The translations under genes and the position numbers were made by a program. DNA of 64,000 nt from Halorutilales archaeon Cl-col2-1 (GTDB taxonomy: Archaea; Halobacteriota; Halobacteria; Halobacteriales; Afararchaeaceae): contig CP169074.1 in assembly GCA_041891055.1 (NCBI GenBank), positions 896,001 to 960,000 on the forward strand. The letters run 5' to 3'. Of this stretch, positions 10,258 to 45,844 are shown piece after piece. Under the pieces are notes generated by a model that saw only the letters and a program-made list of their open reading frames with translations, made no database searches and was not told where the DNA came from. Each line of letters opens with the position of its first letter. Position 1 is the stretch's first letter.

Positions 10258-10968
10258 GGAGGATGTCAAGTTTAGAGATGGTGTTGTGAGGAGCAGCATA
10301 GGATTTCAGCCAGTTAGAGATTGATTGGAGCTATTGGTCGGGAAGCGATCCCAGAACCGAGTAGTTCGGTGTGTTGCGAACCCAAAGTTTGCATACATCC
10401 AAAAATCGAAGATTTTTGAATATTTCAAGACACCGAACTACGACTCTAGTAGGATACGTTGTCCGTAATGCGTCGAGGCTAGATCTACCTTTACTGACGT
10501 CGACGTGGATCACCTTAAAGATGTCCACATCGACGACTGCCCAGACATACACTTGCTCTCCATCGATTTCCAGCTTAGTTTCGTCGACAGCAACTACATC
10601 CCGGTGATCGGTTTCCGGTTCGAAGGGGTGAGACAGTCGGTGATACCACTGTCTTCTTGTGAATCGAAGATTCACGGGATACGCGAATCTGTGATTCGCT
10701 CAACACAGCCTCATGCGAACGTTCGACCACCGGTTCTATATCACGGTACGATAAGCCGGCATAGTACAGGAAAGACGTTGCAAACGCGAAGCGTTTGACA
10801 GCCCACAAATCTCCGATTTGTGAACGCGACCACGCGTCTTTTCTTCAGAGTGTCTTCACGACAAAACTATTTCTTCTTTGCGTGCTTTCTCTATCACGTG
10901 GTTGAGCATTTTCCATCCCACAACAAAATTGCTCAACCATACTCTTACTCTCTAAGGTTAACACCGCC
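10258..10968 (-). mobile_element. Degenerate IS6-family insertion sequence
   Basis: Terminal motifs GGCGGTGTTAACC (10968 end) and TGTCAAGTT (10264 end); transposase fragments VAVDETKLEIDGEQVYVWAVVD and GLSYRDI...SHEAVRQWYHRL. Confidence 0.8.
10331..10909 (-). pseudogene. IS6-family DDE transposase pseudogene
   Basis: Frameshifts, internal deletion and three hairpin-unit insertions (about 10372-10420, 10655-10703, 10776-10824). Confidence 0.8.
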
Positions 10969-18935: not shown

Positions 18936-19282
18936 TTAACGAGAGCGAGCCCTCGTTCGCACATCAGAACGCTTCGCGTTCTGAGGACGTTCGCTAATCT
19001 CTGATTAGCGTGCAAGCAAATCTTCGATTTGCATACGTTCAGAAATCAAAGATTTCTGAGCCCACGAGAGCAAAGCTCTCGGGACGTTCGCTAATCTCCG
19101 ATTAGCGAGCCATCAAACTCGTAGAGTTTGAGACGTTCACGAATCGGAAGATTCGCGTGCGTCCTCAGAAACTTCGTTTCCGGGCTTTCCACAAATCGAA
19201 GATTTGTGTAGTAGCCATTCGAAGAATGGCATACCTTCGGAATCAGAGATTCCGAGACACGAGAACGTAAGTTCTCGGGACG
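18936..19282 (+). repeat. Head-to-tail array of 7 double-hairpin mini-units (47-54 bp) inside the IS left end
   Basis: Units start T/TTC and mostly end ACG, e.g. ttcagaaatcaaagatttctgagcccacgagagcaaagctctcgggacg; 14 stem-loops. Confidence 0.85.
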
Positions 19283-39580: not shown

Positions 39581-40978
39581 CTAAGACTCGCCGGAAGCAA
39601 CATTCCCGTCACGGTGGACGGTACTCAGGTCTGTGCGCTGTTCTTTGGGACTTTCGTGAGAGTGTGATACCTCCAGCCAATCGTGGCTGTCCCACTCGAA
39701 CCGTGCTCGAAAACGCTGCGCGTTTTCGGCATCCCGGAAATTGGAGATTTCCGAGGACACGGGCCGTGCCATCGGCCTGACTTCTTTGCTCGTATGCCGC
39801 TTCAGGAACGTTTCTGACGCCGTAAGGTCGGCATGACCCTCGAATCCACACTGGCAGGTGAGCGTGTCCTGATGCCGTGTCGTTCGGTCTGTCGAACCAC
39901 ACTGGGGACACTCTTGGCTGGTCCACGCTTCCGACCGGACTTCGACCGAGATACCGTATTCCTCGGCGGTACATGCCAGTCGCTCGGTGAATTTCCTGAA
40001 CGCCCAGAAGTTGTGGGTCTTGGCGTTCGTCTCGACCGACCAGTGGGTTTCGAGTACGTCGGTCAACCCGCCGATATACACGGTATCGACACCTTCGGTA
40101 TACAGTCGTTCCAGCAGGTCACGACACAGTGCTTCTTGTGCGTGATCCCGGCGACGGGTTCGCTTTCGGTACAGCCGCCGAATACGCTTGCTACTGTATT
40201 TTCCTTCTTCGAGTTTCGACTTCAACCGGGCGATTTCCCGCGTCGTTTCGCGGAATCGCTGGAACAACTCACGGCCTTCGTACAGGTATTGCTCGCCGGT
40301 CGTGGTGGTACAGGCAACGAGATTGTTTGCACCAATGTCCAGAGCGGCCTTTTCGTCGGCCAGTGGAGTCTCCCGTGTCTCGTCAGAAACAGTCACGGGT
40401 TGCGAAGCTCTGAAGGTGCTATCAGTCTCGTCGTACCACAGGTCTAGTCGGCCTTGGTCTTCGTAGTCAGGCCAGTTCAGGTCGCCAACTATTTCCAGCC
40501 GAAGACGGCTTTTCGGGCTGTTGTGCTTGTCTCGGAGTTCTTTTCCGACGACCATTTCAAGCCGGGATCGGTCGCCCCATTCGACGGTGTAGGCATCCTT
40601 TCGGACGACGCCTTTGAGAACACGTCCGTCGTCCTCGTTACCACGGAAGCCTGGCGGTTCAGGGTGTTCCGTGACCGACGTGTTCGATTCGTCGTGATAC
40701 GCTTTTTTATTCTCGAAGAACGACCGCCACGCTTCGGTGTTTGCTCGCCGGACAGTTTGAGCGGTGGACGCGCCAAGCACGCCTTTGTATTTGCCTTCGA
40801 GCGCGCCGGTATCGGTGTCCCATACGTCGCCCTCGAAGCCGTCCTCGTCGTTGTAGCGCATGAGGCGCTGGTAGTTAATCTCGTTCCAGAGAGCGGCGGA
40901 AGCGTCCAACAGGTCGCGTAGCACCTGCTCACCATCGTCGGTGAGTGGTCGAACGGCGAACGTGTTGGCGCGCTTCAT
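39581..40978 (-). CDS. tnpB: TnpB-family nuclease with altered RuvC-II region
   Basis: ALDIG, IGGL (no acidic residue), [20 protein letters not shown]. Confidence 0.9.
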
Positions 40979-41024
40979 GCCACAATTCTTTTCACGTCTT
41001 CACGTCAAATAAGTCTTGTGAGAC

Positions 41025-41249
41025 ATGACCGTTGACACACCGCTTACGTGTTACATCTGTGGAGAAACGGACGACTGGACAACCGTTGACTTGATTGGCT
41101 GTTTCGAGGACCGACAAGCCGCAGGGGAACGGTTTGAAGAAAAACATGGGAAGAAGCCGGAAAGTTATCTGTTCGTCTGTCCCGAGTGCAAAGAGGAGAA
41201 CCCGCACCATGCCGAAAACTGCTACGAGAAGTACGGGGGAGTCCAATGA
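41025..41249 (+). CDS. Small Zn-finger-like protein (IS passenger)
   Basis: CYICG...CPEC; 74 aa; divergent from tnpB. Confidence 0.65.
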   Translation: MTVDTPLTCYICGETDDWTTVDLIGCFEDRQAAGERFEEKHGKKPESYLFVCPECKEENPHHAENCYEKYGGVQ

Positions 41250-41389
41250 GGCCAGCAATTGACCTTTCCTATGGATTGCACGGTCGTCTGAAAGATTACG
41301 CCGAAGCAAATGACTTGGAACTTTCAGAAGCGTATGCAGAGGTGTTAGAAGCTGGTCTGGAAGCGTTGGAGACTCAAGACCAGCAGTAA
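41246..41389 (+). CDS. 47-aa ribbon-helix-helix-like protein (IS passenger)
   Basis: MRPAIDLSYGLHGRLKDYAEANDLELSEAYAEVLEAGLEALETQDQQ; ATGA overlap with previous ORF. Confidence 0.75.
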   Translation: MRPAIDLSYGLHGRLKDYAEANDLELSEAYAEVLEAGLEALETQDQQ

Positions 41390-41558
41390 CTCGGCGGCTT
41401 CTCACCAGAGCTTACGCGATTCACTCCCGTCCTCGAAAATCGAAGATTTTCGGGTGCAGCAAGACCTCCGGTCTTGCCATGCCCCTGTTCGCTCCTCGGT
41501 TCCGACTGAGCGTCGGAACACTCGTCACTCACGGGAAGGGCGGGATTCTCTCGCTGAA

Positions 41559-42314
41559 TCAAGACAGCTTCGACCTTATGCGCGAGAGGAGAGAAGTCTT
41601 ACGTGAGCAGTTCGACGAGTAGTCACACGGCTCACATCTGGTTGTGTTCGGAGTCTTCGAGGGTATCTCTCCGTCGACTGCTTTCCTGAGGCTTTCGAGA
41701 ACCGAGTCGAGACGTCTCTCGTACCGACGGCTCACACGTGTCTCGCGCACGACTCCACGTCTCGGATACTCGACGTACGCCGTCTCAACGTCTTCTCCGA
41801 ACTCCAACTCTACGAGACGTGCCGCGGCTGTGGCTTCGATCCTGTGTGGCTCCCAGACACCGTTCTCCGGAGGGGTTCCTGTCTTGATGACCGACGGACG
41901 GTATTCACCCTCGACTGAGAGTATCTTGTCGAGAGTACCGTGTATCTGTGCCTCGGAGCCAGCGTCTATATAAGTCTCCTCTCGCCACGGCGACTCTATC
42001 TCGTCCCAGAAGTCGGAGTCAGTTCTTGTCTGTCGGAGTCGTGATCTGACCTCGTCTAAGTCAATTCCCTCAGAGTCGAGGAGATCGGGAGATATATCGT
42101 CTCCGTAATCGTACTCCGCGAGGTCAACCGCGTCCCCAACGGCTCCCCGTGGGTCTTCGATGAAGTCACCGTACCTGTACGCAATCTGATTGAGCACGAG
42201 GTAGACGGGACTTATGCTCGGAGAGTCGTCGGTGTCGAGGTCGAAGTAGAACTGACGTGGACAGTAGGCTCCCTGTCGAAGATCCGAGAGGCTGAACCGG
42301 TCTCTAGTCTGCAT
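41559..42314 (-). CDS. Solo Cas4/Dna2-like PD-(D/E)xK nuclease with Fe-S cysteines
   Basis: AYCPRQFYF, GTLDKI...IKTG, CEPCDYSSNC; no cas1/cas2 nearby. Confidence 0.85.
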   Translation of the reverse strand: MQTRDRFSLSDLRQGAYCPRQFYFDLDTDDSPSISPVYLVLNQIAYRYGDFIEDPRGAVGDAVDLAEYDYGDDISPDLLDSEGIDLDEVRSRLRQTRTDSDFWDEIESPWREETYIDAGSEAQIHGTLDKILSVEGEYRPSVIKTGTPPENGVWEPHRIEATAAARLVELEFGEDVETAYVEYPRRGVVRETRVSRRYERRLDSVLESLRKAVDGEIPSKTPNTTRCEPCDYSSNCSRKTSLLSRIRSKLS

Positions 42315-42372
42315 CCACAGGTGGCTTTCGTCCTCGGAGTACTTATTTGTATTTGAGGTTCGTGTGGTAGAT

Positions 42373-42792
42373 ATGGCGGAGTCAGACACGGGAGAAACAC
42401 ACGACGAGTACAGATCCGGGTACTGCAACATAGGTGAGTACGAAAGGAGAAAGAGATACACGGTCGCTGTGCTAGGCTTCGTCGCGTCGGCTGTATACGT
42501 CGCTGTGATACTGCTGACCGAAATACCCGGCTACCTCGTAGTCGGAGTCTTCGTTCCCCTGACTGTCGGATTTGAGGGTTACATACAGGGAAAGAGGTCT
42601 TTCTGTGTGACTCTGGGTCTCCTCGGTAAGTACAGTTTCTCGTCAGAGGCGTCCGGGTCAGACTCGGGTGACGTGACGGACTCCGAGGAGAGGAGGTCGG
42701 ACAGACTCTACGCTCTCCGTATAACCGTCACGGCACTGACAGCCGCGGCTCTGACTACCACAGCCATCTACATCGGGGTCACGTCGATTTGA
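42373..42792 (+). CDS. Hypothetical membrane protein
   Basis: GYCNIG..ERRKR followed by three TM segments. Confidence 0.75.
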   Translation: MAESDTGETHDEYRSGYCNIGEYERRKRYTVAVLGFVASAVYVAVILLTEIPGYLVVGVFVPLTVGFEGYIQGKRSFCVTLGLLGKYSFSSEASGSDSGDVTDSEERRSDRLYALRITVTALTAAALTTTAIYIGVTSI

Positions 42793-42880
42793 GAGGACGA
42801 GTGGAGGGAACGAGACGGAGTTTTCGATGAATTTATGTCTGTGACGTGTATAAGTATGGATGTACGGCAGATAGGTGACG

Positions 42881-43066
42881 TTGTGAGGCAGAGCTTCACA
42901 GCGCACAAAGAGTCTGGGACGTTCAGAAATCAGAGATTTCTGAGCCCACGAGATCATAGATCTCGGGACGTTCAGCAATCTCCGATTGATGAGCCAACAA
43001 GATCGGAGATCTTGTGAAGTCTCCGAATAGAGTTCGGATGCCAGCATAATCGAAGATTATGCGACG
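42881..43066 (+). repeat. Array of 4 double-hairpin mini-units abutting and overlapping tRNA-Gly
   Basis: Units at 42881, 42922, 42971 and 43020; unit 42922-42970 nearly identical to 19038-19086. Confidence 0.8.
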
Positions 43067-43131
43067 GTAGTGTAGTGGTATCACGTGACCCTGCCACGGT
43101 CACAACACGGGTTCAAATCCCGTCCGTCGCA
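43061..43131 (+). tRNA. tRNA-Gly(GCC)
   Basis: GCGACGG/CCGTCGC acceptor, TGACC-CT-GCC-AC-GGTCA anticodon arm, GGTTCAAATCC. Confidence 0.96.
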
Positions 43132-43141
43132 CTACTACTAG

Positions 43142-45737: not shown

Positions 45738-45844
45738 GCCCGGGTGGCTTAGCCGGTCATAGCGCCGCACTCATAGGGCATTCGAGTAAGGCGCTCGTCT
45801 CCTGAGACATGCGGAGGCCGAGGGTTCGAAACCCTCCCCGGGCA
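45738..45844 (+). tRNA. tRNA-Met(CAT) elongator with 33-nt intron (45776-45808)
   Basis: GCCCGGG/CCCGGGC acceptor; CCGCA-CT-CAT-A|intron|A-TGCGG; bulge-helix-bulge CTCA/TGAG. Confidence 0.93.

Follow-up and report, generated by a model that had tools for sequence, protein, structure and literature searches.

Tandem two-hairpin modules of a mobile family precede and overlap the tRNA-Gly(GCC) gene of a Halorutilales archaeon

The 186-nt array that precedes and overlaps tRNA-Gly(GCC) in Halorutilales archaeon Cl-col2-1 is a member of a genome-wide family of ~50-nt, two-hairpin, non-coding mobile modules. Our analyses show that these modules obey a defined grammar, that they are tied to the ends of IS200/IS605-type elements, and that their arrays are polymorphic between genomes. 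From the same data we infer where the array entered, a candidate for the enzyme that would mobilize the modules, and a transcript in which the array would form a long leader of the tRNA. Positions are numbered along the window, the 64-kb stretch of DNA analysed here; G000 denotes the genome that holds it, G001 the only genome of the same genus, and the one other member of the family-level group, in the set compared, and X1 a metagenome run.

The array at tRNA-Gly(GCC) and its state in relatives

The array (42881-43066) consists of four head-to-tail hairpin modules of 41, 49, 49, and 47 nt, and the final six bases of the last module, GCGACG at 43061-43066, are also nucleotides 1-6 of the tRNA. 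Both points had been made in a preliminary description of this DNA; its coordinates were upheld when the units were reread, TRF detected a 49-nt period, and the shared six bases follow from the ARAGORN and Rfam calls. ARAGORN and Rfam both place the tRNA at 43061-43132 (or 43131), with an RF00005 score of 69.1 bits over model positions 1-71 (gathering score, 29), a cloverleaf above the curated score, and a complete acceptor stem, which identify it as a tRNA. ARAGORN finds 43 tRNA genes in the 2.06-Mb genome, and no other tRNA-Gly among them has a GCC anticodon. The parts of the locus are as follows, hpA and hpB being the two hairpins of a module.

42867 to 42880, forward strand: GCAGATAGGTGACG, the native leader end plus displaced tRNA nucleotides 1-6 if the array entered inside the tRNA, or the start of the insert if it entered the leader
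42881 to 42921, forward strand: module 1, degenerate, with the hairpin GTGAGGC-AGA-GCTTCAC (one G-T pair), a decayed second hairpin, and the end GGGACG
42922 to 42970, forward strand: module 2, canonical, TTC-hpA(TCAGAAATC/GATTTCTGA)-GCCCA-hpB(CGAGATC/GATCTCG)-GGACG
42971 to 43019, forward strand: module 3, canonical, with hpA TCAGCAATC/GATTGATGA (one mismatch), hpB ACAAGATC/GATCTTGT, and the end GAAG
43020 to 43066, forward strand: module 4, with an hpA-like TCCGAA-TAGAG-TTCGGA, the linker TGCCA, hpB GCATAATC-GAA-GATTATGC, and the tail GACG
43061 to 43132, forward strand: tRNA-Gly(GCC) (ARAGORN, Rfam)

The last hairpin of the array, GCATAATCGAAGATTATGC, lies at 43044-43062. Module 2 has matches of 90-93% over 52-69 nt at four further loci of the genome, and hpB of module 3 with its tail has 25-27-nt matches, 96-100% identical, at four other loci; a search of the genome found no paralogue above chance for module 1, for 42867-42880, or for module 4. 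The leader and tRNA together (278 nt) fold at -115.7 kcal/mol, compared with -80.3 ± 4.7 in 200 shuffles, none of which is as good (z = -7.5), and Rfam gives no family match to the array at E values up to 1. Two open reading frames cross it, at 42835-43017 (forward) and 42658-43047 (reverse), both overlapping hairpins in which the changes between strains are compensatory for pairing. Two other identities were considered and dropped: a C/D-box small RNA, since the TGATGA (42987-42992) belongs to the arm of a hairpin, and a mini-CRISPR, since the units are too short and lack spacers.

The preliminary description had taken the array for an insertion, and the comparison that it proposed, alignment to the locus of a relative (here G001), supports the view that it is inserted mobile DNA. 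G001 has the same promoter region and an identical 5' part of the tRNA, joined without the array as ...GTATAAGTATGGATGTACG-CATTAT-GCGACGGTAGTG (also written ...TATAAGTATGGATGTACG-CATTAT-GCGACGGTAGTG); the tRNA is identical over the part shown and the flanks are ~80% identical. The alignment breaks between 42866/42869 and 43055/43057. On the tRNA side, ATTATGCGACG of G001 (CATTAT-GCGACGG) matches 43056-43066 exactly, and G001 retains ATTAT, the 3' arm of the last array hairpin. On the promoter side, position 42867 is G in the window, T in the X1 strain, and missing from G001.

A near-identical strain carries the array in a different state. A 1152-nt contig from X1 aligns without gaps to 41944-43095, and of the 26 differences listed (among 36), 9 fall in the 923-nt flank and 17 in the ~190-nt array. 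Twelve of the listed changes make module 2 equal to module 3 at 48 of 49 positions, and A43018C turns the GAAG end of module 3 into GACG. Module 2 has been replaced in X1 by a copy of module 3, which means that whole modules are exchanged within a short time. A scan of metagenome contigs with the protein of the downstream DICT-domain gene gave five loci at 29-35% identity, none with a tRNA. Elsewhere in the window, a third tRNA (45738-45844, forward strand; 56.8 bits) is called by Rfam only, being missed by ARAGORN, and its length of 107 nt indicates that it probably carries an intron.

A genome-wide module family linked to IS200/IS605-type elements

A search of G000 with 42849-43131 gave 35 matches. 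The family core, AATCNNNGATT (AATC-NNN-GATT), occurs 194 times in the genome compared with 14-25 times in five shuffles of C1; further copies lie in the window at 10404-10808, 32597, and 32877. Outside the core, Watson-Crick pairing holds for 79-89% in the four stem pairs and drops to 27-52% once partners are shuffled, and all four base-pair types are seen at the first two of these positions; the stems thus co-vary while the core stays fixed. C1 has 454 perfect hairpins with a stem of at least 7 and a 3-nt loop, compared with 202 in a Markov-1 shuffle, and in 132 of the 454 the innermost stem bases are AATC. Arrays of at least three adjacent perfect hairpins occur 34 times in the genome and not once in a Markov-1 shuffle of C1; the tRNA-Gly array, counted as the 35th, escaped the scan owing to a mismatch or a 5-nt loop in two of its hairpins. 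The largest tandem arrays contain up to 15 perfect hairpins (scanned with a stem of at least 6 and a loop of 3).

These arrays can be read as a grammar. A type-1 module of 47-50 nt consists of T, hairpin A (TC-xxx-AATC NNN GATT-xxx-GA), GCC(A), hairpin B (for example, CGAGATC NNN GATCTCG), and (G)GACG; it starts with its T after CG, often GACG, and ends in (G)ACG. A second module type uses different linkers (ggtgca, catgc). CG or GACG precedes the modules at most sites, with CG-T on the 5' side of 43 of 64 A hairpins; one 97-nt insert of four hairpins, of a different module type, follows GGAT and is present in G000 and absent from G001. The A-hairpin pattern has 56 matches in G000, 43 in G001, and none when reversed as a control; counts are low in two other families of the order, and 25 of 201 genomes have at least one match. 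Each type-1 module, entering after CG or GACG and ending in GACG, would recreate its own entry site, so that arrays would lengthen and be renewed one module at a time.

The family is tied to IS200/IS605-type elements. A tnpB gene is in range of 16 of the 35 arrays, on the right-end side in 8 and on the left-end side in 8; none is in range of the other 19, several of which carry the flanks of tnpB-less derivatives. The A and B hairpins of the family are found near tnpB genes, which relates them to the palindromes at IS605-type ends of this genome. One such element lies upstream of the tRNA-Gly array.

39584 to 40978, reverse strand: tnpB of an ISH12-like element, 465 aa, with OrfB_IS605 and TNB domains
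41430 to 41482, forward strand: 53-nt two-hairpin module after CCCG in the left end of the ISH12-like element

The element as a whole (39584-41563, reverse strand) has a 137-aa open reading frame without a Pfam match at the place of the ISH12 tnpA. Over 69 nt (the query began at 41500), the left end of the element shares 98.6% identity with that of ISH12 from Halobacterium phage phiH, which is striking between genomes of ~55% and ~65% GC. A search of the phage collection matched only this ISH12 end. In phiH the left end lacks the module and reads ...CAGGGC/GGGAGTG (slashes mark junctions), and in different copies the same site holds 0, 2, 4, or ~14 hairpins, the array of ~14 lying at window 18964-19255 (G000:C1:914964-915255). 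At this site the insertion has made no target duplication (CCCG/53 nt/CCCTG); at GACG sites the GACG tail of a module is indistinguishable from a 4-bp duplication, and two similar hairpins form a pseudo inverted repeat. At the right ends, an omega-RNA-type stem, AAGCCTCG...CGGGGCTT, encloses 47, 96, or 147 nt, corresponding to one, two, or three modules, in seven distinct copies from the two genomes (eight are listed, two of them being the same G001 site). At one orthologous site, G001 has three modules after AAGCG and G000 has none; at others, the arrays of G000 and G001 differ by many modules. The left end, the right-end stem, and the comparison of the two genomes together identify the single module as a unit of insertion.

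A candidate enzyme is encoded in the genome, which has 33 matches to the TnpB zinc-ribbon (TNB) domain and one Y1_Tnp gene. The latter, the single match to PF01797 (133.7 bits; a 138-aa open frame at G000:C1:979038-979397), lies ~1 kb from a divergently oriented tnpB, an arrangement like that of an IS200/IS605 element. A Y1 (IS200-type) TnpA is therefore available in trans, and its activity on the modules is our assumption. The end hairpins of ISH12 itself are GC-rich with loops of 4-5 nt, unlike the modules, and the family hairpins found in IS ends are inserts; for this reason it is a guess that the single Y1 TnpA would mobilize the modules in trans. No more than 50 nt downstream of the Y1 gene is a six-hairpin array (979447-979586) enclosed by CCCCGCCC...GGGCGGGG, which recurs at C1:533469 and C2:51551.

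Probable entry of the array and predicted transcription through it

Modules also adjoin other tRNA genes. The hpB subtype of module 4, GC..AATC...GATT..GC followed by GACG, occurs once in G000, in module 4, and twice in G001, and all three copies adjoin the acceptor strand of a tRNA at GACG/G, the two in G001 at GACG/GAGCA of tRNA-Glu sequence. In one part of G001, a 3' fragment of tRNA-Glu(ctc) is split exactly after GACG by a 49-nt module (CCCTGACG/...GCGACG/GAGCA), and an intact copy of tRNA-Glu(ctc) lies 60 nt upstream. In another, the 3' end of the intact tRNA-Glu(ttc) holds a 48-nt module flanked by a 12-nt repeat, and G000 has none there.

Side observations in G000 concern the 3' ends of tRNA genes. 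In 4 of the 43 genes, a hairpin takes the last 2-3 bases of the tRNA as its first stem bases (on C1, tRNA-Pro cgg at 182186, tRNA-Glu ttc at 372195, tRNA-Ile gat at 1656390, and tRNA-Ala cgc at 1671529), and at tRNA-Thr(ggt) (C1, 614973) a hairpin begins one base past the tRNA end. The 3' end and hairpin of tRNA-Pro(cgg) and tRNA-Ile(gat) are duplicated 50-130 nt downstream, as repeats of 10 nt and at least 21 nt. These 3'-end hairpins resemble either additional module entries or what is left of integrated elements. Partial 3' copies of tRNA-Glu(ctc) (41 nt, 100%) also lie far from the gene, at G000:C1:1277907-1277947 and at locus L038, as left by integrative elements.

Where the tRNA-Gly array entered must be judged from its edges. 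The preliminary description placed its entry inside the tRNA, after nucleotide 6. This reading is plausible and favoured by the module grammar, short of proof: the junction and the tRNA-Glu cases fit it, and the ATTAT of G001 fits an insertion into the leader as well. On balance we lean toward entry inside the tRNA in a form that includes a later deletion. In this form, an ancestor of both species would have received the array behind the GACG that makes up tRNA-Gly nucleotides 3-6, at an empty site reading ...GATAG/G(C/T)GACGGTAGTG; module 4 would supply tRNA nucleotides 1-6, and the GTGACG at 42875-42880 would be the displaced original. Only an array ending in GCGACG would be tolerable at the site, because such an array rebuilds the acceptor 5' strand of a single-copy tRNA. 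G001 would then have deleted ~42869 to 43056, sparing the last half-hairpin, ATTAT. Two further features support entry inside the tRNA: module 4 is complete (hairpin, TGCCA, hairpin, GACG) only if it extends to 43066, and the array begins with TT right after GACG, as other type-1 arrays do. The extra deletion required in G001 counts against it, as does the four-hairpin insert after GGAT, which departs from the CG rule. The relic proposed in the preliminary description fares less well. GTGACG does differ from GCGACG by one mismatch, but GACG is a generic module boundary, which makes a relic indistinguishable from it, and local alignment of 42867-42910 to the 5' half of the tRNA is no better than in shuffles (P = 0.75). 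A leader-end matrix, which is too weak to separate the two entry points, scores -2.7 for the leader expected from entry inside the tRNA (42863-42874), -3.0 for the leader of G001, and 1.9 for the present leader.

A less probable course, to which we would give perhaps half the credence, is that the array entered wholly within the leader, after the CG of GTACG (42866), with ATTAT and tRNA nucleotides 1-6 native; the array-free locus would read ...GTACGCATTAT/GCGACGG, and the 5' arm of the last hairpin would have been made complementary to native sequence by template switching or microhomology junction repair. It offers the simplest alignment to G001, a single clean indel of 189 nt with identity up to GTACG and again from ATTATGCGACGG onward, and it too has the array enter after CG, as elsewhere. 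In addition, the last hairpin has GCAT/ATGC as its outer stem, which is atypical of a family that mostly has TCG/CGA, and hairpins whose first stem bases are the final 2-3 bases of a tRNA do occur at tRNA 3' ends. Against it, native sequence would have to complete a module truncated in the hpB loop, offering 7 nt of complementarity followed by GACG, and 10 of 12 bases would also have to equal the 3' part of the G001 tRNA-Glu modules. Moreover, the insert would start with the non-canonical GCAGATAGG, and no template-switch event was seen at any other array edge. An early reading of our own, a plain 189-nt insertion into the leader that would have refuted entry inside the tRNA, was downgraded in light of the module grammar and the tRNA-Glu cases. 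What likelihood is left falls to entry inside the tRNA without a deletion in G001, or to something else. In this genus tRNA-Gly(GCC) has A-U as acceptor pair 4:69, compared with U-A or C-G in 10 tRNA-Gly copies at 9 loci from other families of the order; the A-U may have been left by replacement of the 5' strand or may be ordinary variation.

Wherever the array entered, it now separates the tRNA from its likely promoter. A 14-nt BRE/TATA matrix was built from the other 42 tRNA genes, whose sites start at -55 to -29 with a median score of 8.8, and it distinguishes two upstream sequences.

42827 to 42840, forward strand: ATGAATTTATGTCT, the best candidate BRE/TATA promoter, matrix score 4.7
42849 to 42856, forward strand: TATAAGTA, the TATA box of the preliminary description, not among matrix hits of at least 0.3, present in G001

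A score of 4 is reached by 0.5% of genome positions. G001 keeps ATGAATTTATGTCT with one change, starting at -46 from the tRNA +1 and thus within the range of the other genes. By comparison, TATAAGTA scores below 0.5 and in G001 lies only 24 nt before the tRNA +1, while the A/T boxes of other tRNA genes start, by eye, at about -37 to -30. We consider the preliminary promoter assignment to be probably off by ~20 nt, 42827-42840 being the better fit, and TATAAGTA to be possibly a -10 A/T element. The transcription start is predicted near 42857-42862, upstream of the array, and a further GTGACG (42841-42846) stands between that point and the candidate TATA. Transcription would run from the old promoter through the array, in which the longest T run (42867-43060) is 3 and no terminator-like site was found, with a sigma-70/terminator scan that is unsuited to archaea. 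The pre-tRNA would carry a ~200-nt leader with 6-7 hairpins that RNase P would remove at 43061. In the predicted fold the hairpins are retained, and the final one competes for G1 and C2 of the tRNA, and in the minimum-energy fold GUACGG of the leader (GTACGG, 42862-42867) can pair with the 3' acceptor strand.

It is improbable that the array instead brings a promoter of its own, from which the tRNA would be transcribed with a short leader starting within or just after the modules. AATAGA (43025-43030) does lie at about -36 to -31 from the tRNA +1, and the TATA match is poor for some tRNA genes of this genome, with matrix scores of -1.7 to 4.8 at the low end. Yet the best hits inside the array score 5.4 at -129 and 2.6 at -19, and no hit of at least 0.3 in the array starts between -55 and -29. 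Least credible is that the multi-hairpin leader is a selected RNA element and no tolerated parasite, kept, for example, to control pre-tRNA stability or processing or to be released as a small RNA: compensatory changes maintaining the hairpins, the want of a T run or terminator, presence in two strains, and a fold far more stable than shuffles would suit such a role, but the sister species has the same single-copy tRNA without the array, module 2 has been swapped between near-identical strains, the same modules occupy IS ends and many unrelated sites, module 1 is decaying, and there is no matching Rfam family.

Relation to known elements and biological meaning

REP and BIME sequences are short extragenic palindromes with conserved flanks and compensatory stems, clustered and present in hundreds of copies per genome, with a presumed link to a Y1 enzyme (RAYT). 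The modules described here are also numerous, dispersed, extragenic, and clustered, with conserved flanks. In contrast, they belong to an archaeon, are arranged head to tail rather than alternating, and for about half of the arrays are located within IS ends; no solitary RAYT-like gene flanked by repeats was seen, the only Y1 gene sitting near tnpB. The "peel-and-paste" elements of the IS200/IS605 group (ISH12, IS608, ISDra2) insert 3' of a short fixed sequence without target duplication, in a strand-specific manner that involves hairpin recognition. The modules, likewise strand-specific and built on hairpins, differ from them in having no gene, in hairpins distinct from the GC-rich ends of ISH12, and in a target of only CG or GACG. 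Integrative elements in tRNA genes carry a replacement for the displaced tRNA end, and the displaced piece is found on their far side. The tRNA-Gly insert would similarly regenerate tRNA sequence, and duplicated tRNA 3' ends of 10-21 nt stand beside hairpins in this genome; at tRNA-Gly, however, the end concerned is the 5' end, the regenerated stretch would be 6 nt, and the inserted DNA, 186 nt between promoter and tRNA, is non-coding and comes without an integrase.

The closest parallels by description are in Haloquadratum walsbyi, in which PATEs are described as non-coding, palindrome-based elements without terminal inverted repeats or target duplication (PMC3119063). According to the same account, PATE palindromes resemble IS605-type ends and "terminal-only" versions of ~52 bp appear mobile, while SMR-A elements, ~110 bp long with inverted terminal repeats, insert into near-terminal palindromes of IS605-type elements and PATEs, and insertions vary between strains (PMC3119063). 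Likened on these descriptions, the present family is also non-coding, palindromic, tied to IS605-type elements, and variable between strains, and the tRNA-Gly array, at 186 nt, is as a PATE would be, too short to code and without a transposase gene inside. Relative to the PATEs and SMR-A elements so described, the family differs in its two-hairpin units of 47-53 nt and in its tandem arrays in IS left ends, omega-RNA-type stems, and tRNA ends. The RepRanger paper, in the sections consulted, treats archaeal palindromes in general terms only (PMC12306157). In our literature searches, no account of haloarchaea turned up in which tandem two-hairpin modules occupy tRNA ends or TnpB RNA scaffolds.

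Collectively, these results describe an archaeal analogue of bacterial REP/BIME sequences with defined filled and empty sites, in which array turnover is caught in one strain pair and apparent loss in one species pair. The presence of modules inside TnpB RNA scaffolds bears on the evolution and insertion tolerance of guide RNAs. At tRNA-Gly, a single-copy and presumably essential tRNA gene tolerates the separation of promoter and tRNA body by ~190 nt of mobile hairpin DNA. If our reading of the junction is right, a 47-nt non-coding element can replace the first six bases of a tRNA, which would make it a 5'-end, integrase-free counterpart of the tRNA 3'-end regeneration performed by integrative elements. 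More tentatively, the modules may represent a new class of archaeal mobile element, made of site-recreating ~50-nt units that colonize the omega-RNA scaffolds and left ends of TnpB transposons as well as acceptor-coding DNA of tRNA genes, surviving in the latter only if they rebuild the tRNA end. If so, tRNA-Gly would be a case at its 5' end and tRNA-Glu and tRNA-Pro would be cases at their 3' ends, and essential tRNA genes would become carriers of long structured leaders or trailers.
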